Shown: positions 4,664 through 21,412, numbered from the stretch's first letter. The stretch is 44,554 bases of DNA from Flavobacteriales bacterium (GCA_046596155.1 JBKJNF010000297.1:1-44554); one strand, 5' to 3'. Notes: generated by a model from the letters alone, not told the origin. A program made the numbers and translations.

Positions 4664-5812
4664 TCAGGTAATAGAGGTAGGCGGAAAGGGCGGGTCACCC
4701 GCCGTTGTAGTGGTGTTCAGGGGCGTTCGATCTTTCACCCTCGCAGCGGAATTTCTCAGGAGATGATCGGCGATCACGAGGCAGGCCATGGCCTCCACAA
4801 CGGGCACAGCGCGGGGCACCACGCAAGGGTCGTGCCTGCCTTTGGCTTCTAACACAACGGCCTGTCCACTGCGGTCCACAGTGGTCTGCTCGCGCATCAA
4901 GGTGCTCACGGGTTTGAAGGCCACATCGAAAACGATGTCCTCGCCCGTGCTGATGCCCCCTTGCACGCCGCCACTGCGATTGGTACGGGTGCTTATGGCA
5001 CCGCCATCGGCCACATACGCATCATTGTGTTCCGATCCGCGCATGCCCGCCGCACCGAAACCGCTGCCGATCTGGAAACCCTTCACCGCGTTGATGGAGA
5101 GCATGGCCTTGCCTAGGTCGGCGTGTAGCTTATCGAACACCGGCTCGCCAAGCCCAGCTGGCACGTGATCCACGACACAGGTTACCAGACCACCGAGTGT
5201 GTCGCCCTCGGCGCGCACGTTCTGGATGGCCAGCGCCATTCGTTCAGCCGTTGATGGATCGGGGCACCGCACGTCGCTGCTGTAAACGGTGGAGAGGTCC
5301 AATTCAGTATATGATCGCGTCAGTTGCACCTGGCCCACTTGGCTTACGTAGGCCTGTACGCGCATGCCTGATGCGGCGATCACTTGGCGGGCGATGGCGC
5401 CGCCAACGACGCGACAGGCCGTTTCCCGTGCACTGGCACGGCCACCACCGCGATGGTCGCGCAGGCCGAACTTTTGTTCCCACGTCAGATCAGCGTGCCC
5501 AGGGCGATAGGCATCCTTCAACTGGTCGTAATCGCTGCTCTTCGCATCGCTGTTGCGGATGATGAAGCCGATGGGCGTGCCGAGGGTGATGCCATCCAAC
5601 AGCCCGCTGAGGAACTCCACACGATCCTCCTCCTTGCGTGTTGTTCCCAGAGGGGTGCTGCCCGGCCTGCGGCGGTCGAGCTCGTCCTGCACGAGAAGCA
5701 GGTCCAGCGTCAACCCAGCGGGGCAGCCGTCGATGACGCCACCGATCGCTTGCCCGTGGCTTTCGCCAAAAGTTGTGAGCGTGAAGACCTTACCAAAACT
5801 ATTGCCGCGCAT
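4664..5812 (-). CDS. aroC: Chorismate synthase
   Basis: MRGNSFGKVFTLTTFGESHGQAIGGVIDGCPAGL..., GRASARETACRV and GRHDPCVVPRAVPVVEAM are textbook AroC blocks. There is a ~30-aa non-conserved C-terminal tail. Confidence 0.95.
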   Translation of the reverse strand: MRGNSFGKVFTLTTFGESHGQAIGGVIDGCPAGLTLDLLLVQDELDRRRPGSTPLGTTRKEEDRVEFLSGLLDGITLGTPIGFIIRNSDAKSSDYDQLKDAYRPGHADLTWEQKFGLRDHRGGGRASARETACRVVGGAIARQVIAASGMRVQAYVSQVGQVQLTRSYTELDLSTVYSSDVRCPDPSTAERMALAIQNVRAEGDTLGGLVTCVVDHVPAGLGEPVFDKLHADLGKAMLSINAVKGFQIGSGFGAAGMRGSEHNDAYVADGGAISTRTNRSGGVQGGISTGEDIVFDVAFKPVSTLMREQTTVDRSGQAVVLEAKGRHDPCVVPRAVPVVEAMACLVIADHLLRNSAARVKDRTPLNTTTTAGDPPFPPTSIT

Positions 5813-5929
5813 GAGGGGGCGAAGTTACCCGTGTGGACCGGCCTTTCTCCGAGCGTCCCGCTCAGCGATCAACGATCATGGGTGAAGAGCCCCATTCGCT
5901 GTCAACACCGCTTTGTGAAGGTCGGGCAC

Positions 5930-6691
5930 ATGCAGGTCCATTCCCTCGGAACTTCGCGATCGACCTTTGGACCCAAGCCGTTCATGCGCCCGATCCACAT
6001 ACAAGCCCAGCCTGACGATGACACATGCGGCGCTACGGCGCTGCAGGCGGTATACCAGTATTTCGGCGAGAAGATCGGTCTGAAGGAGGTGATCAATGAG
6101 GTGTACCACTTGGAGAACGGAGGAACGCTGGCGGTCTTTCTGGGCCTGCACGCGTTGAAGCAAGGCTACCATGTGCGGATCCATTCCTACAACCTGAGGG
6201 TGTTCGACCCCAGCTGGGAAGGCCTTCCGCCAGAGATCCTGCGCAAGAAGTTGGTGGCGCAAACGCGGTTCAAGGAGAGCAAGCGCCTACATGCATCATG
6301 TCTCGCCTACGCCCGTTTTCTAAAGCTGGGGGGGGAGTTGCGTTTCGATGACCCCACCCCTGCCCTGCTGCAGCGCTACTTCGACCACGATCTACCGGTG
6401 CTCACTGGTCTCAGCGCCACGTACCTCTACAAGAGCAAGCGAGAATACAGCACCACGGCCGGTGTCAGCGTGTTCGATGACCTGCGCGGTAAGCCGATGG
6501 GGCACTTCGTAGTGTTGAGCGGCATGAAGGGGAAGCAGGTAACGGTCTCCGATCCCTATAGCGGCAATCCGTTCAGTCAGGCGCATGAATATGAAGTGCA
6601 TGTGGGCCGCCTGATCAACTCGATCATGCTGGGCATTGTGACCTACGACGCCAACCTGCTGATCCTTTCACCGAAGAAATTGCCGGCATGA
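5930..6691 (+). CDS. Free-standing C39-like (papain-fold) cysteine peptidase
   Basis: This is the 3' part of track ORF 5384..6691; the upstream part overlaps aroC antisense and is rejected. In-frame ATGs lie at 5930 and 5984. The C39 signature is present: QPDDDTCGATALQAVYQYFG (Cys codon 6026-6028), GHFVVLSG (His codon 6503-6505) and VSDPYSG (Asp codon 6551-6553). The stop overlaps the next start as ATGA. Confidence 0.75.
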   Translation: MQVHSLGTSRSTFGPKPFMRPIHIQAQPDDDTCGATALQAVYQYFGEKIGLKEVINEVYHLENGGTLAVFLGLHALKQGYHVRIHSYNLRVFDPSWEGLPPEILRKKLVAQTRFKESKRLHASCLAYARFLKLGGELRFDDPTPALLQRYFDHDLPVLTGLSATYLYKSKREYSTTAGVSVFDDLRGKPMGHFVVLSGMKGKQVTVSDPYSGNPFSQAHEYEVHVGRLINSIMLGIVTYDANLLILSPKKLPA

Positions 6692-8169
6692 AGAAGATCA
6701 TCGTGGTGCGCGAGCCCAAGGAATTCAACCTCGGCGTGAAGGGCGTGGAAGTGGTGAGCAGTAAGGATTACCTCACCCATCCCCGCTTTGCGGCGATGAG
6801 CAATGTGCGCGTGTTCAACTTGGCGCGCAGCTACAGTTACCAGAGCCGCGGCTACTATGTAAGCCTGCTGGCCGAGGCGCGCGGACAAAAGGTTATCCCT
6901 GATGCGAAGCACATCCTGGACCTGAAGAATCCGGGCATGGTGCGGGTGTTCAGCCGCGACCTCGACGACCTGATCCAGCAAAGTCTTGGACACAAGTTGA
7001 CGGACGAGTTCACCTTCAGCATCTATTTCGGCAGGAACGTCAACCCCAAGTATGACAAGCTGGCGCACGAGCTCTATCTCTCCTTCCAGGCACCCTTACT
7101 GCGGGCGCGTTTCGTAAAGGGCGATAAGTGGGAACTGCGCTCCATCCGGCCTATCCCGTACAACGACATCCCGGAGGACCACCTCCCTTTTGTGCGCCAC
7201 TTTGCGTCCGACTATTTCGCCAAGAAGCGCTACGACAAGGCCCGGGAGGACCGGAGCGCTTACGACCTGGCCATCCTGGTGAATCCGGCGGACACAGCTT
7301 CGCCCAGCAACAAGCGCGCGATCGTGAAGTTCCGCCAAGCGGCTGAGGAGATGGGCTTCGCGGTGGACATCATTGGACCCAACGATATGGACCGTATTCC
7401 GCAGTACGATGCGCTCTTCATCCGCGAGAACACGCATGTTAACGACCACACCTACCGCATGGCGCGCAAGGCCCAGAAAGAGGGGCTGGCCGTGATGGAC
7501 GCGCCGGAGGCGATCCTGAAATGCAATAACAAAGTGTACCTAGCCGAGGTGATGGAGGCGCATGGCGTGCCCACGCCAAAGACCATGATCGTGCACAGCG
7601 AGAACCGGCACGAGGTGGCCTCACACTTCGGCTTGCCCTTAGTGCTAAAACTGCCGGACAGCACCTTCAGCCGCGGCGTAGTGAAGGCGAAGACCGCGGA
7701 GGAACTCGAGCAGAAGCTGGATGAAGTATTGAAGGAAAGTGACCTCGCGATCGCACAGGAGTTCATGCCCAGCGACTTCGACTGGCGCATCGGTGTACTG
7801 GACGGCAAGCCGCTATACGCCTGCAAATACTTCATGGCAGCGGGCCACTGGCAGATCTACAATTGGTCCAGCGGCACCAAGAAGGGACAGGAAGGCGACG
7901 CCACCACCATGCTCGTGGAGGAATGTCCCTCTTACATCATCGACACGGCGGTAAAAGCCGTGCTGGCGATCGTGGGTGACAAGGGGCTCTTCGGTGTGGA
8001 CGTCAAGGAAACACAGGGTAAGCCCTACGTTATCGAGGTGAACGAATGCCCCAACATCGATCACGGTGTGGAGGACCTGGCATTGGGTGATGAACTTTAC
8101 CGGGCCATCATCGGCAGCCTGAAGAAGACCATCGAGGAGAAGATCGGATCGGCAACAACAACGGACTAA
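6688..8169 (+). CDS. RimK-type ATP-grasp amide ligase with an N-terminal RLAN-like domain
   Basis: 493 aa. The C-terminal ~290 aa align by eye to E. coli RimK (PLVLKLPDSTFSRGV; IAQEFMPSDFDWRIGVLDG; GVDVKETQGKPYVIEVNECPNID). The N-terminal ~200 aa (MKKIIVVREPKEFNLG...RVFNLARSYSYQSRGYYVSLLAEARG) match my memory of the RimK-like ATP-grasp N-terminal (RLAN) domain. Confidence 0.9.
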   Translation: MKKIIVVREPKEFNLGVKGVEVVSSKDYLTHPRFAAMSNVRVFNLARSYSYQSRGYYVSLLAEARGQKVIPDAKHILDLKNPGMVRVFSRDLDDLIQQSLGHKLTDEFTFSIYFGRNVNPKYDKLAHELYLSFQAPLLRARFVKGDKWELRSIRPIPYNDIPEDHLPFVRHFASDYFAKKRYDKAREDRSAYDLAILVNPADTASPSNKRAIVKFRQAAEEMGFAVDIIGPNDMDRIPQYDALFIRENTHVNDHTYRMARKAQKEGLAVMDAPEAILKCNNKVYLAEVMEAHGVPTPKTMIVHSENRHEVASHFGLPLVLKLPDSTFSRGVVKAKTAEELEQKLDEVLKESDLAIAQEFMPSDFDWRIGVLDGKPLYACKYFMAAGHWQIYNWSSGTKKGQEGDATTMLVEECPSYIIDTAVKAVLAIVGDKGLFGVDVKETQGKPYVIEVNECPNIDHGVEDLALGDELYRAIIGSLKKTIEEKIGSATTTD

Positions 8170-8225
8170 CACAGCGCGATGCGGGCGGCATGAGCCGTCA
8201 TCATCGCAGCCAACGCATAGGAACA

Positions 8226-9458
8226 ATGGCCCAACAAAAGCCCTACGGCCTCTTCGAGGTCACCGGCATCGAGCTGGAATACATGGTAGTTGACCGCGAA
8301 ACGCTAAAGGTGAGCGCCACGGTGGATGAGCTCTTCAAGGACACCGTGGGAAAGGTGGTGAGCGATGTAGAACGCGGCGATGTGGAGTGGAGCAACGAGC
8401 TCACAGCCCACGTTGTGGAAATGAAGACCGCAAAGCCAACGGCGAACATCGCGAGCTACGAGATGAAGTTCGCCGCCGAGGTGCGCGCGATGAACGAGGC
8501 ATTGGCCAAGCGTGGCCGCATGCTTCTGCCAGGCGCAGCGCATCCGTTCATGGACCCGCTAAAGGAATCGGTACTGTGGCAGCACGAGCACAACGAAGTG
8601 TACGCGCTTTACAATACTATTTTCGACTGTCGTGGCCACGGCTGGAGCAACCTGCAGAGCACGCACCTCAACCTGCCCTTCGCCAACGACGACGAGTTCG
8701 CGAAGCTGCACACCGCGATCCGGATGCTGTTGCCCATCATCCCCGGGCTCAGCGCCAGCTCACCGATCCTCGACGGCAAGGTCACTGGGATGATGGACAC
8801 GCGTATGCACCACTACCTCACCCACCAGCAGCGACTTCCGCAGTTGATGGGTTCATTGATCCCTGAAGCCGTCTTCAGCCAGGAGGATTACTACCGCGTG
8901 ATCTTCGAACCCATCGCGCGGGCCCTTGCACCCTTCGATAAGGACCAGGTAATGGACCACCACTTCGCGAACAGTCGCGGTGCCATCGCACGTTTCGATC
9001 GAGGTGCCATCGAGATCCGCGTAGTGGACATCCAGGAATGCCCGAGCGCCGACCTGGCCATTGCGGAGATGATCGTTGCTACGCTCAAGGCCTTGGTGGC
9101 CGGGCGCTGGGTGAGCAACTACCTGCAGCGCGCATGGCACGAGAGCGACCTGCTGGCGATATTCAAGGACGTGATCGTGGATGCCGGTGATGCGGTGATC
9201 GCCAACAAGGACTTCCTGCTGATGTTCGGACTAATGCGCGAAAGCGCTACGGGCACTGAGCTTTGGAAGCACCTGTACCGCCAGGTGCGTGAGGACCTCA
9301 GCGATGGCGCACGGATCCGCATCGGTCACATCCTCGATCATGGATGCCTGGCGAAACGCATCCTCGCCCGCACTGGTCCATCGCCGGACCATGCGCGCAT
9401 AGTGGACGTGTATCGCGAATTGGGGCAGTGCCTGCAGGACGATCGTCAACTCGCATGA
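8226..9458 (+). CDS. GCS2-family carboxylate-amine ligase (YbdK-like glutamate-cysteine ligase family 2)
   Basis: Aligns by eye to E. coli YbdK: FEVTGIELEYMVVD, GAAHPF, LLPIIPGLSASSPILDGKVTGMMDTR, GAIEIRVVDIQECP. ATG 8226 is preferred; the track start at 8190 is an alternative. Confidence 0.88.
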   Translation: MAQQKPYGLFEVTGIELEYMVVDRETLKVSATVDELFKDTVGKVVSDVERGDVEWSNELTAHVVEMKTAKPTANIASYEMKFAAEVRAMNEALAKRGRMLLPGAAHPFMDPLKESVLWQHEHNEVYALYNTIFDCRGHGWSNLQSTHLNLPFANDDEFAKLHTAIRMLLPIIPGLSASSPILDGKVTGMMDTRMHHYLTHQQRLPQLMGSLIPEAVFSQEDYYRVIFEPIARALAPFDKDQVMDHHFANSRGAIARFDRGAIEIRVVDIQECPSADLAIAEMIVATLKALVAGRWVSNYLQRAWHESDLLAIFKDVIVDAGDAVIANKDFLLMFGLMRESATGTELWKHLYRQVREDLSDGARIRIGHILDHGCLAKRILARTGPSPDHARIVDVYRELGQCLQDDRQLA

Positions 9459-10150
9459 GCTCCGCACTCTTCCTCAGTTGCGAGCATGGCGGCAACGACG
9501 TGCCCGAGCCCTATCGCGCGTGGATGAAGGGCGCCGAGAAAGTGCTTGCCAGCCACCGGGGATACGACATCGGGGCCATGGACCTGTTCCATCGTCTGGA
9601 GCCGCTCGCCGAAGCTGCTGTCAGCAACAAGCTCACACGTCTGCTCATCGAATTCAATCGCACCGAGGGCAGCCCGCATTGGTTCTCGGCATTCAGCCGC
9701 GAGCTGCCTCCGCACCTGAAGGAGCCGCTGATCGACGCGTACATGCACTACCGCCTGACCTTCCGCGACGAGATGCGCAAGGCACTTGATGAAAGCCGCC
9801 AGGTGCTACACCTCAGCGTGCACACCTTCACGCCTGAACTCGATGGCGAAATACGCGAGCTGGATATCGGGCTGCTGTACGACCCGAGCCGTCCGCAGGA
9901 AAAGAGCTTCTGCGAGGCTTGGCGCGATGCCATCCGGCTGCGTGCTCCAGGTTTGCGCGTGCGCATGAACCAGCCGTACAAGGGCAACAGCGATGGCTAC
10001 ACACGCGCCTTGCGCCAGCACTTCGCGCCGTCGGAATACAGCGGCATCGAACTGGAGGTGAATCAGGCCTTCGCGAAGAAGAACGTGTTGGACGCCGATG
10101 TATGCACCGTGCTGCACGCCTCATTGGAGGCCGTGTTGCGCGGGTCTTGA
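9455..10150 (+). CDS. N-formylglutamate amidohydrolase (FGase/HutG-like) family hydrolase
   Basis: ATG 9455 overlaps the GCS2 stop as ATGA. FGase-family blocks are present: LFLSCEHGGNDVP, RLLIEFNR, HLSVHTFTPELDG, VRMNQPYKG, SGIELEVNQ. The track extension 9344-9454 overlaps the upstream gene and is rejected. Confidence 0.85.
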   Translation: MSSALFLSCEHGGNDVPEPYRAWMKGAEKVLASHRGYDIGAMDLFHRLEPLAEAAVSNKLTRLLIEFNRTEGSPHWFSAFSRELPPHLKEPLIDAYMHYRLTFRDEMRKALDESRQVLHLSVHTFTPELDGEIRELDIGLLYDPSRPQEKSFCEAWRDAIRLRAPGLRVRMNQPYKGNSDGYTRALRQHFAPSEYSGIELEVNQAFAKKNVLDADVCTVLHASLEAVLRGS

Positions 10151-10261
10151 CTTTTCACAGCGATCGGCAAGGGAGTCTCGGTTCCCTGGTCAGGGGCATC
10201 CGTCGAATAGATACAACCTCTCGTGGGCCGGGGCGTATCGCAGCGCACCAACCTCCGCCCC

Positions 10262-11185
10262 ATGCGCCCATTTGCCTACGCTGCGCTGCTGCTTTCCACA
10301 GGCCTACTAGCACAGGCCATACCCTCGTTCTACTGGCCGTTGAATGAAAGCGCCGGCACCATGGCGTACGAGGTGAACGGCCTGAGCGACGGTCTGCTCA
10401 GTGGAGAATGTACGTGGTTGCCCAACGGCGGCCATCATGCCGGAGCACTGCGCTTCTATGGCAACACGGCGCGGGTGGACATGGGCCCCTGTGACGTCAC
10501 GACCGGAGCAGGCGACCAGTTGAGCGTGGCGTGCTGGTTCAAGCCGGAGATCGTCAGCGGCACAGAGCGCATTTTGGTAGCGAAGACCATCGGGCCCACG
10601 AGCGACGACTTTGTGTGGAGCTTGAGCCTGGTGAACAATACCGGTGCCCGCTTCCGCGTGCAGAGCGGCGGTGCAGTGCATACGGTGGACATTCCGCCGA
10701 GCAGCATCTTCAGTAACACATGGTACCATGTTACGGGTACTTATGACGGAACAACGATGCGCCTGTTCCTGAACGGCAGTGAGACCGCCAGCGGTGCTGC
10801 CTCCGGTGGCCTTGGCTATCATCCGCAGGCGCCGGCCACCATGGGAAACGTCACGAACAATGGCCTGCCCTATTACGGCCAGTTGGATGATGTGCGCATC
10901 TATGATCGCGGGCTCACGCAGATGGAAGTGATCGATCTGGTGGTGGGCGATGTGAGCACGACCATGGGCGAACAGGGACCGATGCTGCTACCGGACGGTT
11001 CGCTGTGGATCCCACCGGGCACATGGAAGGAACTGCAATGGATCGATGCAGGCGGACGACTGGTCGCCGCGGAACGCATCTTGATAGGTACCACCCCGGC
11101 CAACGTCCCCACGACGCCGGGACTATACCTGGTCTGCCTCCAGGGGGCCGAAGGGCACATTGCGCGCCCCGTGGTGGTACCCTGA
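10262..11185 (+). CDS. Secreted LamG/concanavalin-A-like lectin domain protein with a T9SS C-terminal sorting domain
   Basis: Signal peptide MRPFAYAALLLSTGLLAQA. Laminin_G_3-type blocks are present (GALRFYGNTARVDMG, FSNTWYHVTGTYDGTTMRLFLNG, GQLDDVRIYDRGLT). The T9SS-like tail reads LQWIDAGGRLVAAERI...PGLYLVCLQGAEGHIARPVVVP. Confidence 0.8.
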   Translation: MRPFAYAALLLSTGLLAQAIPSFYWPLNESAGTMAYEVNGLSDGLLSGECTWLPNGGHHAGALRFYGNTARVDMGPCDVTTGAGDQLSVACWFKPEIVSGTERILVAKTIGPTSDDFVWSLSLVNNTGARFRVQSGGAVHTVDIPPSSIFSNTWYHVTGTYDGTTMRLFLNGSETASGAASGGLGYHPQAPATMGNVTNNGLPYYGQLDDVRIYDRGLTQMEVIDLVVGDVSTTMGEQGPMLLPDGSLWIPPGTWKELQWIDAGGRLVAAERILIGTTPANVPTTPGLYLVCLQGAEGHIARPVVVP

Positions 11186-11243: not shown

Positions 11244-14198
11244 TCAGCGAACCACGGAGAATCGCTGCTGCACGCTGCCTCCATCCCAACGCGCGCGCAG
11301 CACATAGCCACCTGCCATCAAACCGCGCACATCGAGCATGGAACGGATCATGCCACCGCCGTTACCGAGTGGCTGCGTGAGCACAATGCGTCCTGCGGGA
11401 TCTAGCACCTCGGCCATTACGCGTCCTTGTGCCGACACATCGAGCACGATGTTGAGCGTGGCGTCCGCGGGATCGGGGTACAATGCGTTGATGGTCGCGG
11501 TCTGCTCGTCTATACCCACCACCGTGTTATCCCACAACTGAAGATCATCCATTGCGCCTTCCACGAGGCTTCCGCCATCGAGGTTCTGCCCCAAGCGGGT
11601 GCTGTCACTGGCAATGAACCGCAACTGCACGGTGCTGTTGGGCACCACGAAGTCCTGCACCCGGAAGGCGACCCTACGCCAGGCCCTGTCATCGCTTTTG
11701 GTATTCTCTACATACACCCAATCGGTGCCGTTGTTGGTGATCTGTACCTGCCACCAATCCGCACCAGGGTTGGCCCCACCAGGAGGGCTGTTGGTGTACC
11801 AGCGATAGTAGGTAAAGGTGGGGTTGATATAGGATGTCAGATCGATGGGATCCCCGCGTAGCGTGGTGAACCCTGCATCCACATCAGCTTCTCCGGGAGT
11901 GGTCGGGTCAGTGCCATTACCTGTAAAAAAGCAGAACTCACCGCCAGGTGTATGCTGGTCACCCGTCTGGATAATGCTGTTGTCCACGGTGCTGTACGTG
12001 GGATTCGGATCGTAAAGCTCCCATGTGCCGGTCGTGTTGTTGTCACCCGCCACACCCAGGTCCCAATCGCCGAGCTCGTTGAGGTTGTCCGCGTTCTCGG
12101 TAAGCTTGAGGTCGAATCCGATCAGCATGTAGTTCGGGAGGTTCGGATCTGGATCGGCCGCGCCAGAGGGTGTAACGCCACTGATCACACTGCTCACATC
12201 GAGCAGGCCGATGTAGTAGCTGATCACAGTACCAAGGGGCTGTCCGGGGATGGTTGCCTCGTAGTTGCTGCCACCCGTGTTCGTCATCATCATCTGCTGC
12301 CATACCCCTTGGTTCACGCGGTAGCTCAGTTGCACCCCTTGCAAATAGTTCTGGAAGACACCTGTAACACTGGCATTGGCCTGAATAAGGATGTCGTCAT
12401 TCACCGGGGCTGTTTCCACAGGTGTGTGCACGACATCAAATCCGGTTAGCAGGGTGATGCCATGCAAGCGGAAGCCTTCACCGATGGCATCGCCGTGGGG
12501 TGTTCCGTTCAGCAGGTTACCGTCATCATCATCGGCTTGCAGCACATCGATGAGCACATCGCGGAAAGCCACGCCCTCGTTCCCTCCCGCAGCTTCGGCT
12601 TGAAGACCGGGATACGCGAGCGCGAAGAGGTCCGTGGTCAGTTGCATATCATTTCCAAGAAGCACATACGTATCCCACCAGGCCCCAGCAATGATCTCGC
12701 CATCAGCATGCACCTCCCCTGTGATGTCCGCAGGGTACACCTTGCGGTTCTGGTCATAGCGGCGGATGTAAGCATTGGGGTCGCTGATCGTGTAGCCTGG
12801 GGCCAGTACTGGGTTCTGCGTAAGGGAGAAGCCCCAGAAATCGGCGTAGCCTTCACCCATGGCACCGTTGATGAAGTTGCCGCCGTTGGCCTGGTAGTAG
12901 TTGTCGTTGATGCCATGCCCATATTCATGATACACTACGTCGTTCACCCGCGCGAGCGAATAGCAGTCATTGCCCTCGAGGTAAAAATTGATCGAACTGC
13001 CGTCGTAGAAGGCGTTACAATCACCAGTGGTCAGATCCACGTTCGTGAGCAGGCTGAAATCCATTCCGGAAAAGCCGGGCAGCACAGTGGTGGCATGGTC
13101 GTGGATATTGTTGACATGGTAGTATGCGCTGCGTTCTTCCAAGGACGACTCGGGGTCGAACAACACCACGTTCGCGCCTTCCTGCAAGGTCCCCGTGAGC
13201 GAAGGCGTGGTGGAACCATTCACCACGGTGCTCCAAAGACCCGAAAGCTCTGTGGAAAGTGCCACAGGTCCGGTGATTCCGCTGCTTACAAAGCCGTTCG
13301 CATCCGTCACGAAGTCCTGGTTGCCAACGGTCATATTGAGATTCCGCAGTACGCCGACAGTGGGAGCGTTAAGTGGATTCGTAAGCTGCACTGTGGCCTG
13401 CATGGTTACATCGGCACCAACGTCCTGGCCTTCGGCGAGATCGACCTCGGATAGGATGCGGTTCTGGCGATAGAGCAGTTTGCCGCTCACGGCATCCACA
13501 TAGCACATCCAACGACCAGGCATGCTCCGCGTGTTGGTGGTCACTTCCACCTCCCGAACGAGGTGATGTTCCACGCCATGTATGACCGGCACAGGAAGGA
13601 TCCGCTCAGCGCCCACAACCGTTCCGCCGGTGATGTCGGACAGGCCTGCACTGGCCGCTGAGATCATCTGCGCCTCCGTGGCGATCGGTGTTGAAAGCGT
13701 ACCGATCTCCGCGTATACGTCCAGTCCGAATGCGATCACACGACCTTGCATGTCGAGCTTCACCAGCGCCTTGCTAAAGAGCACGTCCCGGCCTTCATGG
13801 CGCTGGGTGATGTGCACGTAATGATGCTTCGCCGTGCTCGACACGTGTCGCACATCCAACTCCTGCATAGGCAGGTTGAAGGCGGCCAGGTCCTGCGTGA
13901 GGAAGTTCAAGGCTCGCTCTGATGGCGTTGTCCCGGTGGTACTGATCGGTGTTCCCAACGCACGGTGCGGCAGTCCATTCGCCTCATTGAACTCCACCCA
14001 CCAGCCCGGATGCTGGGCCACGAATTGGCGCCATACCGATCGGCCGCGCAACTCACTCTGCCAACCCTCGTCGGGCTGCACCTTGCGGTCCTTGATGAAA
14101 GTGACCGCGGCCAGGTCACCACGGCCACGTATGTCCTGGGCATAAGCACCGAGACCTGAGGCCACAAAAAGGGCAGGAAGGAGTATGGATCGACGCAT
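11244..14198 (-). CDS. Secreted M36 (fungalysin)-like zinc metalloprotease with a jelly-roll (MAM-like) domain and a T9SS C-terminal sorting domain
   Basis: Signal peptide MRRSILLPALFVASGLGAYAQ (ATG 14198; the track start is 14231). Zinc motif VVYHEYGHGINDNYY plus downstream GAMGEGYADFWG, as in the M36 HExxH...GEGWSD arrangement. The tail LYPDPADATLNIVLD...LMAGGYVLRARWDGGSVQQRFSVVR is a T9SS type-A CTD. Confidence 0.85.
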   Translation of the reverse strand: MRRSILLPALFVASGLGAYAQDIRGRGDLAAVTFIKDRKVQPDEGWQSELRGRSVWRQFVAQHPGWWVEFNEANGLPHRALGTPISTTGTTPSERALNFLTQDLAAFNLPMQELDVRHVSSTAKHHYVHITQRHEGRDVLFSKALVKLDMQGRVIAFGLDVYAEIGTLSTPIATEAQMISAASAGLSDITGGTVVGAERILPVPVIHGVEHHLVREVEVTTNTRSMPGRWMCYVDAVSGKLLYRQNRILSEVDLAEGQDVGADVTMQATVQLTNPLNAPTVGVLRNLNMTVGNQDFVTDANGFVSSGITGPVALSTELSGLWSTVVNGSTTPSLTGTLQEGANVVLFDPESSLEERSAYYHVNNIHDHATTVLPGFSGMDFSLLTNVDLTTGDCNAFYDGSSINFYLEGNDCYSLARVNDVVYHEYGHGINDNYYQANGGNFINGAMGEGYADFWGFSLTQNPVLAPGYTISDPNAYIRRYDQNRKVYPADITGEVHADGEIIAGAWWDTYVLLGNDMQLTTDLFALAYPGLQAEAAGGNEGVAFRDVLIDVLQADDDDGNLLNGTPHGDAIGEGFRLHGITLLTGFDVVHTPVETAPVNDDILIQANASVTGVFQNYLQGVQLSYRVNQGVWQQMMMTNTGGSNYEATIPGQPLGTVISYYIGLLDVSSVISGVTPSGAADPDPNLPNYMLIGFDLKLTENADNLNELGDWDLGVAGDNNTTGTWELYDPNPTYSTVDNSIIQTGDQHTPGGEFCFFTGNGTDPTTPGEADVDAGFTTLRGDPIDLTSYINPTFTYYRWYTNSPPGGANPGADWWQVQITNNGTDWVYVENTKSDDRAWRRVAFRVQDFVVPNSTVQLRFIASDSTRLGQNLDGGSLVEGAMDDLQLWDNTVVGIDEQTATINALYPDPADATLNIVLDVSAQGRVMAEVLDPAGRIVLTQPLGNGGGMIRSMLDVRGLMAGGYVLRARWDGGSVQQRFSVVR

Positions 14199-14210
14199 GA
14201 GGGTGTAAGG

Positions 14211-14234
14211 GGTGTGCCACGAAGATCGCACACC
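14211..14234 (-). other. Intergenic GC-rich hairpin between the MBL-hydrolase stop and the metalloprotease start
   Basis: GGTGTGC (14211-14217) pairs with GCACACC (14228-14234), with a 10-nt loop. No U-tract follows, so its function (terminator or 5'-UTR structure) is undetermined. Confidence 0.35.
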
Positions 14235-15445: not shown

Positions 15446-16899
15446 TTAAACTGGGCTACTGTGGGCTTGGATAGCGGTTCGAGATAAGTAGATCCCGGTG
15501 CTGTTCTTGGCTTGGTGGTCTCGCTTCTTTTATTCTACCACCAACCGCACATTCCCCACCTCGCCCAAATTGTTAACGATCCGCACGGAGTAAACCCCCG
15601 CTGGAAGCCCTTGGGTATCGAATCGCTGTTGATGGCGGTCGTACGACAGGCCCATGTGTATGATCGAACGCAGTGGGCGACCCGTAATGTCCATCAACGT
15701 GAGGGTCACATCACCTTGGCTCGTGAAGGTGACCGTGGAGCTTACCGTGCACGGGTTCGGGAAGGCGGACGAAGCGATGTCGGACTGGCGCTCAGTGCTC
15801 ATACCAACGCTCGCGTCATTCACCCAGCGGATGGAATTATCAGCGGTGGTGACCCCGTTCGTGGTTACCGTTCCATTGGAATGCCGGACGATGGCAAATG
15901 GAATACCCACTTTGTAGTAGTAATAGAAATCACCGGTGGCGGTGGTCATATTCGGACCGAGGGTTTCCGTGTAGGTTTCCGTTAACCTCAGCCGCAGCAC
16001 GTCCGTTACCGTTCCGAAAGGCATCTGCAGATCGCCGTAACCGTCAATCAATCCTTGAACGGTACCGGACCTGAAGCCTACGATATTCCCATTGAAAAGA
16101 TAATTGCCCGAAAATGGATCCGTCCAAGAGGTGAGGTACATGCTGGGGAAGGGCAATTCCAACCCCGGATCATCGAGCACCAAGGCCAGGCCGTCGCTAA
16201 TTCTGTAGGCTCCCAGACCGGACCCACCGCCTGAAGTAACCTCCCGTGCAAGTACGATCTGCGTGGTCTGGTTCACCAAGAGGACGGTCGCTTCCGGGAA
16301 AAGTGATTCCAGTCCCGAGCCGACAGGGTCCACATATTCCAACACGTCCGTGGAAAGCGAGTTCAACTGGGTGTAGTCCCAGACCACGTTCGCTCCGGAT
16401 GGACCGAATGGCAGAGGGTCGGCGGTTGTGAGCTGATAGGAGACACCCGTGGTGGTGCCGAAAGAGTTCTGGTCGATGACCGGTTGGGCGTTCGAGGCCG
16501 TGGCCCCAATGATCAATAGAAGTACAGTAGAGTTGCGCATGCGCGAGTGGCTTTATCCCGCCAAAGTATACCAAGTTCCGCTATCAGGGAGACCGGGTGC
16601 GCAAAGCTGAAGATCGCTCTGGCGAGCGAGCGATCATGATCCGGAATCGCAGGAAGCGCGCCTTCCCAATGGGGGTTGGCCATCAGCAGCAAGGATCAGT
16701 TACTCGGATCGGCTCGTTCTTCCGCGGTCGCTTTGGTACGGGAGCATTCCGGGATTGCGCGAGGCGCGCTTTCCCGGAAGGGGTGGCTTCAAATAGCCCG
16801 AGCCGCTTTGCGGCTCGCCTCGTTCTTTAATGATCGCTCCGGCGAGCGAGCTCCCGCGCGATCCCCGAAGAACCAGCCCCGACAAGTAGGGGGCTATTT
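15446..16899 (-). mobile_element. Candidate remnant islet (1,454 nt) inserted at the tRNA-Ser 3' end; no integrase present
   Basis: Bracketed by the 21-nt direct repeat. It contains only the T9SS cargo gene 15530..16540 and a 358-nt repeat-rich spacer. Confidence 0.35.
15530..16540 (-). CDS. Secreted protein of unknown function with a T9SS C-terminal sorting domain
   Basis: Signal peptide MRNSTVLLLIIGATASNAQ. The tail is FPNPCTVSSTVTFTSQGDVTLTLMDITGRPL...LPAGVYSVRIVNNLGEVGNVRLVVE. It is a distant paralog of 31647..32702. Confidence 0.8.
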   Translation of the reverse strand: MRNSTVLLLIIGATASNAQPVIDQNSFGTTTGVSYQLTTADPLPFGPSGANVVWDYTQLNSLSTDVLEYVDPVGSGLESLFPEATVLLVNQTTQIVLAREVTSGGGSGLGAYRISDGLALVLDDPGLELPFPSMYLTSWTDPFSGNYLFNGNIVGFRSGTVQGLIDGYGDLQMPFGTVTDVLRLRLTETYTETLGPNMTTATGDFYYYYKVGIPFAIVRHSNGTVTTNGVTTADNSIRWVNDASVGMSTERQSDIASSAFPNPCTVSSTVTFTSQGDVTLTLMDITGRPLRSIIHMGLSYDRHQQRFDTQGLPAGVYSVRIVNNLGEVGNVRLVVE

Positions 16900-16988
16900 G
16901 GCGGAGAGGGAGGGATTCGAACCCCCGTTACCCTTGCGGGTAAAGCGGTTTTCAAGACCGCCGCATTCAACCGCTCTGCCACCTCTCC
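16899..16988 (-). tRNA. tRNA-Ser (anticodon UGA) with a long variable arm and encoded CCA
   Basis: The reverse complement reads GGAGAGGTGGCAGAGCGGTTGAATGCGGCGGTCTTGAAAACCGCTTTACCCGCAAGGGTAACGGGGGTTCGAATCCCTCCCTCTCCGCCA. Acceptor GGAGAGG pairs with CCTCTCC. The anticodon stem GCGGT/ACCGC carries loop CTTGAAA. The T-loop is TTCGAAT. Confidence 0.95.
16900..16920 (-). repeat. Proximal copy of the 21-nt direct repeat (inside the tRNA-Ser 3' end)
   Basis: Exact match to 15425-15445. Confidence 0.85.
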
Positions 16989-18572: not shown

Positions 18573-19634
18573 GTGTCCATTTTTGCCGCCCCAATGATGC
18601 GGATGGATACGGCAGTGGTCATACTGAACTGGAACGGTGCGCGCTGGCTCCGGGAGTTCCTGCCGCAGGTAGTGGAACACTCGCGTGATGACGCTCGCGT
18701 GATCGTGGCGGACAATGGCAGCACGGATGGGTCGCTTGCGTGGTTGCGGGCCAATACGCCCGAGGTGGAGGTCATCGAATTGGGCAGCAACCTCGGCTTC
18801 GCAGGTGGATACAATGCCGCGTTGGCCAGCGTGGACGCGCCGATGTGCGTACTGCTCAATTCCGATGTGGAAGTTACACCTGGCTGGGTGGCTACGCTCC
18901 GCGGCTATCTGGAGCGCGACCCGCGCATGGCGGCCTGCCAGCCCAAGGTACTGAGCCATGCCGATCGCACGCGATTCGAACATGCCGGTGCAGCCGGTGG
19001 CTACATCGATCGAAACGGCTATCCCTTCTGTCGTGGCCGCATCTTCGAGATCACTGAAACGGATACACACCAGTACGATGATGAGCGGGAGGTGTTCTGG
19101 GCCACGGGCTGTTGTATGATGATCCGCAGCGCCGCCTTCCGTGAGGCCGGCGGTTTCGATGAGTCGCTCTTTGCGCATATGGAGGAGATCGATCTGTGCT
19201 GGCGTTTACGTCGCACGGGATGGCGCATCGGCTACACGAGCAAGGCCGTGGTGTACCACGTGGGTGGCGGTGCCTTGGGATACGGAAGTTCGCGTAAGAC
19301 CTACCTGAACTTCCGCAACAGCCTGTGTGTCCTCACGAAGAATCTCCGCTCCCGCTGGATCATGACACGGATCGCGCGGCGACTTACACTGGACATATTC
19401 GCGGCGATCAAGTTCCTACTGGAAGGACATGCGCCGCACGCGTGGATGGTGGGTCGTGCGCATCGCCATTTCCTGGTCCGCCTTCCCGCCCTCTTGCGAG
19501 AGCGGCGTCGGCTGGCTGGGTTGGAGCATGATGCGGACCTCACGGGTCAGTACCAACGCAGCGTAGCGTATGATCGCTTCATCCTTCGGCAGAAGACCTT
19601 TCCGCAGTTGGACGTGACGGCCTTCAGCGAGTGA
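18573..19634 (+). CDS. Family 2 glycosyltransferase
   Basis: VVILNWNGARWL, VADNGSTDGS, NLGFAGGYN and LLNSDVEV form the typical GT2 Rossmann-like N-terminus. The 3' end overlaps the aroQ 3' end by 11 nt. Confidence 0.88.
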   Translation: MSIFAAPMMRMDTAVVILNWNGARWLREFLPQVVEHSRDDARVIVADNGSTDGSLAWLRANTPEVEVIELGSNLGFAGGYNAALASVDAPMCVLLNSDVEVTPGWVATLRGYLERDPRMAACQPKVLSHADRTRFEHAGAAGGYIDRNGYPFCRGRIFEITETDTHQYDDEREVFWATGCCMMIRSAAFREAGGFDESLFAHMEEIDLCWRLRRTGWRIGYTSKAVVYHVGGGALGYGSSRKTYLNFRNSLCVLTKNLRSRWIMTRIARRLTLDIFAAIKFLLEGHAPHAWMVGRAHRHFLVRLPALLRERRRLAGLEHDADLTGQYQRSVAYDRFILRQKTFPQLDVTAFSE

Positions 19635-20043
19635 GGTAGGCGATCGCCATCGCGTAGCCTTCTGCACCGAAACCCGTGATCACACCCACACATTTCGCCG
19701 CGGTGAGCGAGCGTTCGCGGAATTCCTCTCGGGCATGGATGTTCGACAGGTGCACTTCCACCACGGGGATCCGCAATGCGCCGATGGCATCTCGCAGCGC
19801 CACGCTAGTATGTGTGTAGCCGCCCGCGTTCAGCACCACGCCGTCGTGGTCACCATCCGCGGCCTGTAACGTGTTTATCAACTCCCCTTCCACGTTGCTC
19901 TGGTGATGTAGCAGGGTGTGCTCCTTGAAACGTTCACGCAGCTGCTCCAGGATGTCCTCCAGAGTGCGTGTGCCATAGATAGCAGGCTCGCGTGTGCCGA
20001 GGAGGTTGAGGTTGGGACCGTTGAGGAGCAGGATGCGGGCCAT
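19624..20043 (-). CDS. aroQ: Type II 3-dehydroquinate dehydratase
   Basis: MARILLLNGPNLNLLGTREPAIYG...HQSNVEGELI...LNAGGYTHTSVALRDA...VEVHLSNIHAREEFR. The ATG is at 20043. The rest of the 308-aa track ORF is an unsupported extension. Confidence 0.93.
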   Translation of the reverse strand: MARILLLNGPNLNLLGTREPAIYGTRTLEDILEQLRERFKEHTLLHHQSNVEGELINTLQAADGDHDGVVLNAGGYTHTSVALRDAIGALRIPVVEVHLSNIHAREEFRERSLTAAKCVGVITGFGAEGYAMAIAYLTR

Positions 20044-20131
20044 GATCAGTGTGTAGGTCCCATAGGAACCCGCACCAATGATAGTGCGCTTGGAGCTGCG
20101 CGCGGATGGTGGGACGAGCTTCCTTTGCAGC

Positions 20132-21412
20132 ATGGATGCTTCCCCCCTGGCCGAACGCATGCGTCCGCGCCACCTAGGCGAGGTGGTGGGCCAGGAACAT
20201 TTGGTGGGTCCGGAAGGTGTGCTGTTGAAGGCGCTGGCCGCCGGCATGCTGCCCAGCATGATCCTGTGGGGTCCGCCTGGAGTTGGAAAGACCACCTTGG
20301 CGCGGCTCATCGCCGAGAAGCTGGGTAGGCCTTTCCATACGCTCAGCGCCATTAGCAGTGGTGTGAAGGATGTGCGGGAGGTCATCGAGAAGGCCGGGGG
20401 ATCGGGACTCTTTTCGCGCAGCGCCGTGCTGTTCATCGACGAGATCCATCGCTTCAGCAAGGCCCAGCAGGATTCGTTACTGGGCGCAGTGGAACGCGGC
20501 ACCATCACCCTCATCGGCGCCACAACGGAGAATCCTTCGTTCGAGGTCATCGGCGCCTTGCTCTCGCGCTGTCAGGTGTATGTATTGAAGCCCTTGGCCC
20601 AAGAGGAACTGCTCTCCCTGCTGCACCGGGCGATGGAACAGGACGAGGAACTGAAAACGCGGTCGATCGAACTGAAGGACATCGATGCACTGATGCGCGC
20701 CAGCGGAGGCGATGCGCGACGCTTACTCAACACCTTCGAGCTGTGCGTCAAGGCCTCGGGCGAAGGTCCGGTGGCGCTCACAGATGCCCTGGTGCACCAG
20801 GTGGTGCAGAGCAACGCGGCGCGATATGACAAGCAGGGAGAGCAGCATTACGACATCGTCAGCGCCTTCATCAAGAGCATCCGCGGCAGCGATCCGAACG
20901 CAGCCGTGTATTGGCTGGCACGCATGGTGGAAGGTGGTGAGGATCCGAACTTCATCGCGCGTCGCATGGTGATCCTGGCCAGCGAGGACATCGGCAACGC
21001 CGACCCCAACGCGCTGTTAATGGCAACCACGGCGATGCAAGCCGCGCAGATGATCGGCTGGCCCGAAAGCCGGATCATCCTGAGCCAATGCGCCATCCAT
21101 CTGGCGTGTGCTCAGAAGAGCAACAGCGCATACTTGGCCATCGGCGCGGCCCAGGCTGAAGTGCAGCGCAGCGGCGACCTGGCCGTACCTCTGCACCTGC
21201 GCAATGCGCCCACGAAGCTGATGAAAGAACTAGGGCACGGCAAGGGCTACCAGTACAGCCACGATCAACCTGACCACGCTGGCGATCAGCAGTTCCTGCC
21301 CGACGGGATCGACGGTATGCACTTCTACACGCCGGGTGACAATCCACGCGAACAGAAATACGCTGAACTGCTCGATCGTATCTGGAAGGCCCGGTACGGC
21401 AGGTCGCGCTGA
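20132..21412 (+). CDS. rarA: Replication-associated recombination protein A (AAA+ ATPase)
   Basis: MDASPLAERMRPRHLGEVVGQEHLVG, Walker A GPPGVGKTTLA, LFIDEIHRFSKAQQD, and the MgsA C-terminal block YDKQGEQHYDIVSAFIKSIRGSDPNAAVYWLARM. Confidence 0.93.
   Translation: MDASPLAERMRPRHLGEVVGQEHLVGPEGVLLKALAAGMLPSMILWGPPGVGKTTLARLIAEKLGRPFHTLSAISSGVKDVREVIEKAGGSGLFSRSAVLFIDEIHRFSKAQQDSLLGAVERGTITLIGATTENPSFEVIGALLSRCQVYVLKPLAQEELLSLLHRAMEQDEELKTRSIELKDIDALMRASGGDARRLLNTFELCVKASGEGPVALTDALVHQVVQSNAARYDKQGEQHYDIVSAFIKSIRGSDPNAAVYWLARMVEGGEDPNFIARRMVILASEDIGNADPNALLMATTAMQAAQMIGWPESRIILSQCAIHLACAQKSNSAYLAIGAAQAEVQRSGDLAVPLHLRNAPTKLMKELGHGKGYQYSHDQPDHAGDQQFLPDGIDGMHFYTPGDNPREQKYAELLDRIWKARYGRSR

Follow-up and report, generated by a model that had tools for sequence, protein, structure and literature searches.

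The subject of this study was a group of four consecutive genes (g1-g4) of a Flavobacteriales bacterium (GCA_046596155.1), located on the contig JBKJNF010000297.1, the whole 44,554 nucleotides of which are referred to as the window. A comparison of gene neighborhoods revealed that the two ligase genes, encoding an RLAN/ATP-grasp protein (g2) and a GCS2-type protein (g3), were the invariant core of a recurring module, and that the two hydrolase genes, encoding a C39-like peptidase (g1) and an FGase-family amidohydrolase (g4), were facultative accessories that had been lost independently. As a tentative proposal, the module would be self-contained and would work in the cytoplasm, where it would build free amino acids or a small metabolite into a short non-ribosomal peptide containing glutamate and would also turn this peptide over; this explanation was preferred, though with a confidence short of even.

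Four consecutive open reading frames (ORFs) were called on the plus strand at positions 5930-10150. The stop codon of g1 overlapped the start codon of g2 at 6688-6691 (gcATGAag), and the g3 stop overlapped the g4 start at 9455-9458 (gcATGAgc). The g2 stop codon occupied 8167-8169, and the ATG at 8226, which agreed with the N-termini of homologues, is most likely the start of g3, leaving a gap of 56 nt. An in-frame ATG at 8190 would shorten this gap to 20 nt, but the homologue N-termini did not support it. The most likely start of g1 is the ATG at 5984, 54 nt downstream of the earlier call at 5930, because the closest homologues were 235 amino acids (aa) long, covering the protein that starts at 5984 at 100%, and because tblastn matches to the longer version in other loci began at its residues 17-24. 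Due to this revision, the spacer between g1 and the divergent aroC gene was 171 nt. A previous examination of the same DNA without database searches (the sequence-only reading) had described both ATGA overlaps and the 56-nt gap, all of which were present, as were the motifs it had quoted: QPDDDTCGATAL, GHFVVLSG and SDP in g1, and LSCEHGGN, LLIEFNR, HLSVHTFTP and MNQPYKG in g4. The divergent aroC was also real, but the spacer of 117 nt given for it had to be replaced by 171 nt. The following features were assigned.

5984-6691, plus strand: g1, free-standing C39-like (clan CA) cysteine peptidase, 235 aa, predicted from Pfam, homologues, the AlphaFold2 (AF2) model and Foldseek.
6008-6028, plus strand: Gln9 (6008-6010) through the catalytic Cys15 (6026-6028) of g1, QPDDDTC motif, from the homologue alignment.
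6503-6553, plus strand: His174 (6503-6505, GHFVVL) through Asp190 (6551-6553, SDP) of g1, from the homologue alignment.
6688-8169, plus strand: g2, RLAN plus RimK-type ATP-grasp ligase, 493 aa, from ORF calling and Pfam.
6763-7197, plus strand: RLAN domain of g2, aa 26-170 (PF14401, 154.5 bits).
7522-8061, plus strand: ATP-grasp catalytic domain of g2, aa 279-458, with the GHWQIYNW loop, from Pfam and Foldseek.
8226-9458, plus strand: g3, GCS2/YbdK-type carboxylate-amine ligase, 410 aa, from the GCS2 and YbdK profile matches.
9455-10150, plus strand: g4, FGase-family amidohydrolase, 231 aa, from the FGase and 2ODF matches.
5813-5983, no strand: divergent spacer between aroC and g1, 171 nt by ORF coordinates, the presumed promoter region.
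4664-5812, minus strand: aroC, chorismate synthase (Chorismate_synt, 457.6 bits).

The aroC-g1 spacer matched no Rfam family, and a sigma-70 scan of it gave no score above chance. The counts of promoters and terminators inside the operon did not exceed the shuffled expectation. At 5962-5969 of the window, 15-22 nt upstream of the ATG at 5984, the sequence GACCTTTG was noticed; it differed by one base from TAnnTTTG, the Bacteroidota -7 promoter consensus. Lying inside the ORF that starts at 5930, it would, if functional, support the start at 5984.

The conservation of the module was investigated in one genome per GTDB species (185,579 species genomes), which were queried with two peptides specific for the g2 family. 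At least 599 stretches were obtained, of which at least 593 encoded a relative; the 80 best loci were retained for analysis, and g2 was present in all of them by construction. The other genes were counted only over those loci that had enough flanking DNA to be eligible. The GCS2 gene was found downstream of the RLAN-RimK gene in 73 of 75 eligible loci, the C39-like gene upstream in 57 of 77, and the FGase gene after the GCS2 gene in 48 of 71, with all four genes present and contiguous in 34 of 71. The two hydrolases behaved differently between lineages: in the clade of the window the C39-like gene was present in 27 of 27 loci, the GCS2 gene in 27 of 27 and the FGase gene in 13 of 25, and in Flavobacteriaceae the respective fractions were 0/9, 9/9 and 9/9. 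Thus, the four-gene system proposed in the sequence-only reading recurred in related genomes but was not obligate, the ligase pair being its core.

The same order and strand were kept across Flavobacteriales, Cytophagales, Chitinophagales, Marinilabiliales, Fibrobacter and Legionella, and the flanking genes varied. When the starts of the longest ORFs were used, 4-nt overlaps were counted between g1 and g2 in at least 32 of 57 loci, between g2 and g3 in 25 of 75, and between g3 and g4 in 19 of 50. Genes g2-g3-g4, also overlapping, occurred in Legionella adelaidensis and Limibacter armeniacum. Since the same order and strand recurred across several orders and two phyla, the arrangement was far beyond chance. 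With the order, strand and 4-nt overlaps recurring in other loci, the four genes are judged, from their sequences, to be one conserved, translationally coupled operon, as had been suggested before.

When ORFs of at least 70 aa were clustered over the 80 loci and the window, no further gene family extended beyond close relatives. No conserved carrier, precursor, target protein, exporter, regulator or small ORF adjoined the module in the 80 loci, which agreed with the earlier description of an operon free of a precursor peptide, an exporter and a regulator. Small ORFs that recurred in the flanks or in the g2-g3 gaps were restricted to related lineages and looked like alternative-frame ORFs over the neighboring genes; a locus for ribosomally synthesized and post-translationally modified peptides or bacteriocins was therefore rejected, there being no exporter either. 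The recurring upstream clusters that were inspected, by eye a set of ABC-transporter genes and a DnaJ-like gene, were confined to particular lineages. The aroC gene adjoined the operon in only two of the best 80 loci (L001 and L008), a lineage-specific arrangement.

RLAN-RimK genes lacking GCS2 or FGase partners were seen in records of Pseudomonas aeruginosa, Azospirillum and Aeromonas. A GNAT-RLAN-ATP-grasp fusion was confirmed in the sequence data; its GNAT domain was most similar to RimI, below the RimI cut-off, and the fusion proteins gave no match to TIGR03103 at E <= 1e-10.

Several individual loci showed peculiarities. The nearest of the best 80 loci, L001 (CAWFCK010000005.1), came from a Flavobacteriales metagenome-assembled genome, with a g2 protein identity of 97% and a DNA identity of 87% over the region; the window was accordingly ascribed to an uncultured Flavobacteriales bacterium. 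At L001:9768-10461 the FGase matches fell in two frames (aa 1-132 in frame 3 and aa 120-231 in frame 1), i.e. a frameshift that is either an assembly error or a decay of g4, half of the clade having no FGase gene. In some Fibrobacter loci (L041:9739-14214, L044 and L057), a block of about 4.7 kb parted the GCS2 gene from the FGase gene. By eye, it consisted of thiamine-biosynthesis genes on the opposite strand (thiE/thiH/thiG/thiF-like) and one plus-strand ORF; as extra partners these genes were rejected, for the block looks like an unrelated insertion behind which the displaced FGase gene survives. The stand-alone RLAN-RimK of L081 (NZ_CP133752.1, a P. aeruginosa 'plasmid'), 529 aa in length, lay a few genes from ggt and from a glutamate/aspartate ABC transporter, and the next gene was a convergent class I/II aminotransferase. 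The setting is one of glutamate and gamma-glutamyl metabolism, and the region looks chromosomal rather than plasmid-borne. Another record, L084 (NZ_AP026896.1, Aeromonas caviae, 4.94 Mb), is evidently a chromosome, although PLSDB lists it among its plasmids.

Domains were assigned at the Pfam gathering cut-offs, and the curated NCBIfam cut-offs were used at the family and equivalog level. Each of the four proteins scored above its Pfam cut-off, so that all the family assignments made in the sequence-only reading held. The g1 protein reached 33.7 bits against Peptidase_C39 (cut-off 22; 34.1 bits for the protein starting at 5984) and 32.7 bits against Peptidase_C39_2. Scores of 154.5 bits for RLAN (cut-off 25), 33.2 bits for RimK (cut-off 21) and 39.9 bits for ATP-grasp_3 (cut-off 23.2) were recorded for g2, which also matched Dala_Dala_lig_C. 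The g3 protein scored 89.3 bits against GCS2 (cut-off 21), and g4 scored 66.1 bits against FGase (cut-off 28.9). At the NCBIfam level, none of the four proteins reached a curated cut-off. The g2 protein gave 70.4 bits against TIGR00768 rimK_fam (cut-off 143.4) and 28.9 bits against the S6 ligase equivalog NF007764 (cut-off 331), and it matched glutathione synthetase models weakly. The g3 protein gave 61.1 bits against TIGR02050 (YbdK, cut-off 176.4) and was far below the cut-offs of all gshA models, and g4 had no match at all in NCBIfam at E <= 0.01, HutG models included. Because of these missed cut-offs and the lack of a HutG match, g1-g4 belong to divergent subfamilies of the named superfamilies rather than being orthologues of characterized enzymes, and membership in the canonical RimK, YbdK or GshA families was rejected. 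Two other candidates were also dropped. The Ngg/NAGGN synthetase was represented by TIGR03103, which was absent from the list for g1 and from the 25 of 41 families listed for g2; a defense system was not indicated either, the PADLOC component models giving zero families for all four proteins.

The g1 residues Gln9, Cys15, His174 and Asp190 were invariant in 44 homologues with identities down to 53%, and the segment with His174 and Asp190 could be aligned with the His region in the C39 domain of PCAT1. The AF2 model of g1 had a predicted local distance difference test (pLDDT) score of 87.5 and a predicted template modeling (TM) score (pTM) of 0.86. Its top Foldseek matches were the C39 domains of PCAT1, ComA and LahT, with target-normalized TM scores of 0.67-0.83 (PCAT1, E 1.6e-5; ComA, 0.83; LahT150, 0.75). 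Lower matches included the pseudomurein endoisopeptidase PeiR, the glutathione acyl-enzyme of Alr0975, a phytochelatin-synthase-like protein (E 5.7e-3), and the transacylase CtaG (E 8.5e-3). The C39 signature pointed out in the sequence-only reading was thus borne out by the invariant residues and the confident fold model. In this model, an extra helical insert of about 65 residues (aa ~70-135) was predicted relative to the 140-150-aa C39 domain. Neither a signal peptide nor a transmembrane segment was detected, and g1 is apparently a free-standing, cytoplasmic protein. Therefore, g1 shares the fold and the Gln/Cys/His/Asp set with the C39 domains of PCAT/AMS ABC exporters but differs from them in being free-standing, in its insert, and in having no transporter or Gly-Gly-leader gene nearby. 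On these grounds, cleavage after Gly-Gly leaders, which had been cited for C39 peptidases, could not be transferred to g1. Papain-like relatives of C39 can also act as transacylases (PMC7183216). Two g1 homologues matched DUF3335 of Pfam weakly.

The C-terminal 300 residues of g2 formed the ATP-grasp part, for which Foldseek returned Ddl, ArgX/LysX and RimK with E-values of about 1e-14 to 1e-16; the RimK sequence in the PDB was matched at E ~1e-6. Residues H387-W393, within the GHWQIYNW loop, were invariant in homologues, and the architecture of RLAN plus ATP-grasp in about 490 aa recurred among them. RLAN is a small family: in a set of 1.84 billion proteins, 735 representatives at 50% identity were matched at E <= 1e-3. 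No solved relative of RLAN was detected when the PDB sequences were searched with a profile, and Foldseek with the whole of g2 returned the ATP-grasp part only. A match of RLAN to eS12 at E 0.035 (window 6949-7137, aa 88-150) was considered and rejected, as no L7Ae-type support emerged when 19 RLAN sequences were scanned against Pfam; it is probably a chance profile match. The eukaryotic ribosomal protein eS12 has an L7Ae/L30e-type fold, and an RNA- or ribosome-binding fold of RLAN, if true, would favor the modification of a protein by the module.

The G-x-E-x-E motif of g3 (G14, E16 and E18) and 80 more columns were invariant in its orthologues, including E58, H62, E65, H138, R251 and R265. 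The orthologue profile matched E. coli YbdK (1R8G) at E 8.6e-5; together with the GCS2 score this confirmed the likeness to YbdK that had been seen by eye. The g4 protein aligned over its full length with 2ODF (Atu2144), the closest solved relative and an uncharacterized member of the FGase family, at E 1e-14. The residues conserved in 50 orthologues of g4 were C9, E10, H11, H34, D38, R62, H119, H123, E199 and E201. The FGase assignment was likewise secured by the sequence blocks and the Pfam score of 66.1 bits. A HutG role in histidine utilization was rejected: the likeness of g4 extends to the Pfam FGase family, but it matches no NCBIfam HutG model, and no hut genes were nearby or conserved.

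All four enzymes kept the conserved catalytic signatures in the homologue alignments, and a sequence of reactions can be put forward for the proposed synthesis and turnover of a small glutamyl peptide. The GCS2 ligase would form the first amide at the expense of ATP, most simply that of a gamma-glutamyl-X dipeptide, as in enzymes of the GshA, EgtA and YbdK type. The RLAN-ATP-grasp ligase would then activate the free alpha-carboxylate of this product as an acyl-phosphate and add at least one residue, probably glutamate, in an order of ligations that would mirror GshA followed by GshB, or N-acetyl-aspartate formation followed by RIMKLA. The RLAN domain may serve as a family-specific module for substrate recognition or regulation. 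The FGase-family enzyme would remove a C-terminal glutamate by hydrolysis of an N-acyl-glutamate, the C39-like peptidase would cleave or transfer the peptide through an acyl-enzyme at Cys15, and the two hydrolases together might set the chain length or recycle the compound.

The hydrolases were missing in whole clades, hence two ligations in succession would suffice to form the product, and the hydrolases seem to serve its turnover. The substrates of characterized GCS2 members and of HutG are free amino acids or N-acyl-glutamate. RimK polymerizes free glutamate in vitro, and RIMKLA/B, MptN and CofF glutamylate small molecules. A small-molecule product was therefore favored, because the hydrolases are dispensable, because no carrier or target gene is conserved, because GCS2 and FGase enzymes are known to act on small molecules, and because the RLAN ligase is elsewhere paired with a GNAT, as in the making of N-capped dipeptides. 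A further reason was that ATP-grasp and COOH-NH2 ligases, where they are linked, typically act one after the other in the synthesis of peptide-derived metabolites and of cofactors like glutathione (PMC4431377). The build-and-trim scheme of the sequence-only reading is plausible by analogy, RimK and RimB being a precedent for it (PMC10092738).

Several points weigh against the small-peptide explanation. The residues that hold the poly-glutamate chain in P. aeruginosa RimK are S7, R8, S14, R64, S68, R189 and N262 (PMC10092738). The equivalent of N262 was conserved in g2 (EVNECPN), but the position of R189 was occupied by the invariant, Arg-free GHWQIYNW loop, and the chain-holding residues of the RimK N-domain were outside the region alignable with g2. 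Because of the replaced R189 loop, we can only infer by analogy that glutamate is the residue added by g2. For the same reason, and owing to the missed curated cut-offs, the former description of g2 as an RLAN-like module joined to a RimK-type ATP-grasp held for both Pfam domains but did not extend to RimK proper. The missed NCBIfam cut-offs also weaken the transfer of functions from the named families to any of the four proteins. RimK itself, the founding enzyme, acts on a protein, S6, and the characterized C39 peptidases cut peptides rather than di- or tripeptides. A small-molecule product that comes with no dedicated transporter or regulator gives no pointer to a physiological role. Finally, a full-text search of the open literature returned no product, substrate or phenotype for the cluster and no paper tying these families together; the statement that no biochemical product was known was accordingly upheld.

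The main rival explanation, regarded as possible though rather unlikely, is that a protein whose gene lies elsewhere, for example S6 or some other housekeeping protein, is glutamylated reversibly. In this case, the RLAN-RimK enzyme, possibly together with the GCS2 enzyme, would write a glutamate tail at a C-terminus or side chain, and the C39-like and FGase enzymes would trim it. Among the solved structures nearest to the catalytic domain of g2 are RimK and the protein modifiers LysX/ArgX, and enzymes with the C39 fold act as proteases on peptides and proteins. That g1 and g2 are translationally coupled in at least 32 of 57 loci fits a complex, and the absence of a target gene from the operon is paralleled by rimK and rpsF; the rpsF gene of the present bacterium lies outside the window. 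A close counterpart is the Pseudomonas rimABK operon, a writer/eraser pair of interacting proteins made up of an ATP-grasp glutamate ligase and a trimming protease, in which the operon-encoded RimB binds RimK and limits the poly-glutamate tail on RpsF (PMC10092738). However, RimB is retropepsin-like, RimK has no RLAN domain, GCS2 and FGase genes are absent there, and g2 both misses the equivalog and subfamily cut-offs of RimK and lacks R189. GCS2 and FGase enzymes have no known protein substrates, the hydrolases are missing from whole clades, and no target can be named. The similarity of the fusion GNAT to RimI, although it points the same way, was below the cut-off, and a RimI-like best match is common among generic GNATs.

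Three less probable explanations concern the kind of product or the role of g1. In the first, the ligase pair would make an undescribed gamma-glutamyl tripeptide or oligopeptide, for example a glutathione- or phytochelatin-like gamma-Glu-X-Glu(n) serving as a redox, metal or osmotic buffer; the C39-like enzyme would then be a transpeptidase or hydrolase resembling phytochelatin synthase, and the FGase enzyme would trim the C-terminal glutamate. We give this little credence. The compound would serve Bacteroidota and Fibrobacter, which are not known to have canonical gshAB. The GshA-GshB route to glutathione resembles the module as a minimal two-step path to a tripeptide, in which a ligase of the GCL superfamily is followed by an ATP-grasp enzyme. 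Nevertheless, g3 is far below the gshA and YbdK cut-offs, g2 is RimK-like with an RLAN domain rather than GshB-like, the module adds two hydrolases, and there was no sign of a cysteine substrate. Other pairs offer an analogy of logic only: TTLL glutamylases with CCP deglutamylases, i.e. ATP-grasp glutamate ligases with erasers of the metallo-carboxypeptidase type, and NAT8L with RIMKLA, in which an N-capping enzyme and a RimK-like ligase yield N-acetyl-aspartyl-glutamate.

Secondly, the module might remodel the glutamyl tail of a cofactor or metabolite, the GCS2 enzyme adding gamma-linked glutamate, the RLAN-RimK enzyme an alpha-linked cap, and the hydrolases shortening the tail. Precedents are CofE and CofF acting on F420, MptN on tetrahydromethanopterin, and gamma-glutamyl hydrolase on folylpolyglutamate. 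Two different ligases accompanied by hydrolases in a module that has no carrier would suit such a task, and g2 showed sub-threshold matches to MptN (58.7 bits) and to CofF. These matches were far below the cut-offs of 350 and 300 bits, and no cofactor-biosynthesis gene was conserved beside the module in the 80 loci. These bacteria would not be expected to contain F420 or methanopterin, which also counts against this explanation, and it appears improbable.

Thirdly, g1 might be a biosynthetic transacylase or transpeptidase acting through acyl-Cys15, like CtaG, BtrH and phytochelatin synthase, so that the module would be a three-step assembly line with the FGase enzyme as the sole hydrolase. The Foldseek matches to Alr0975 (E 5.7e-3) and CtaG (E 8.5e-3) are in line with this. 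Pairs of an ATP-grasp enzyme with a papain-like transacylase, a clan-CA enzyme with Cys-His-Asp, are proven for closthioamide (CtaD/CtaG) and butirosin (BtrJ/BtrH) (PMC7183216), and C39-like domains of the DUF3335 type, touched weakly by two g1 homologues, are often fused to GNAT amidoligases (PMC10318531). In contrast to g1, those systems are thiotemplated and need carrier proteins, none of which is encoded here. The g1 gene was absent from 9 of the 9 eligible Flavobacteriaceae loci that keep g2-g3-g4 and is thus not obligatory, being dispensable in some clades, and the best structural matches were hydrolytic C39 domains. We hold this role of g1 to be doubtful. A chance meeting of a stray peptidase with unrelated paralogues of RimK, YbdK and HutG is effectively excluded: each family does occur alone, as the RLAN-RimK records of P. 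aeruginosa, Azospirillum and Aeromonas show, but the order, strand and 4-nt overlaps are conserved across lineages while the flanking genes change.

The remaining part of the window was also inspected. Downstream of the operon, a Laminin_G_3 (concanavalin-like) protein was encoded at 10223-11185 on the plus strand and, at 11244-14231 on the minus strand, a protein of 995 aa that matched nothing in Pfam at E <= 1e-5. By eye, the C-termini of both resemble type IX secretion sorting domains, and both genes were syntenic within the window's own clade only. A tRNA-Ser gene (anticodon TGA; 16899-16988, minus strand) was the sole Rfam/ARAGORN match in the 44.5 kb, and riboswitches or other known RNAs were thereby rejected. 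In a 307-aa ORF at 19624-20550 on the minus strand, a type II dehydroquinase domain was confined to residues 171-305, which indicates either an over-called start or an N-terminal extension. With aroC (4664-5812), this gives two shikimate-pathway genes in the window.

Iyer, Abhiman, Burroughs and Aravind (2009) are said to be the source of the Pfam RLAN family, and they reportedly listed FGase and peptidase partners and predicted a peptide-derived metabolite or a peptide tag. The amidoligase neighborhoods of that survey reportedly share with the window an RLAN ATP-grasp gene in an operon with a GCS2-type ligase gene, and the window is a further instance in which nothing essential differs. A passage of PMC4431377 credits Iyer et al. 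2009 with the operonic linkage of ATP-grasp and COOH-NH2 ligases, and to that extent the association mentioned in the sequence-only reading was substantiated. In Francisella, the deletion of a 490-aa 'rimK' (FTT0178) did not attenuate the bacterium in mice. Taken from its length alone, FTT0178 is probably an RLAN-RimK member; its gene adjoins an acetyltransferase gene, not a GCS2 gene, so that here too the ligase would be paired with an N-acylating enzyme.

The module had already been flagged by comparative genomics, and the window is another clean example with no new biology beyond that; what is new here is the quantified core/accessory structure together with the checks of catalytic residues and folds. 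The module is a good experimental target, yet it would not surprise a specialist. It occurs in environmental and gut Bacteroidota, in Fibrobacter and in at least one Legionella, with at least 593 relatives among the 185,579 species genomes, and seventeen years have passed since its flagging with no product, substrate or phenotype reported. Solving it would give a function to four poorly named subfamilies, RLAN included, and would correct the mis-annotations 'S6 modification protein', 'glutamate-cysteine ligase' and 'N-formylglutamate amidohydrolase'. It would reveal either that writer/eraser cycles of glutamylation exist outside Pseudomonas or that these bacteria make a previously unknown glutamyl peptide.

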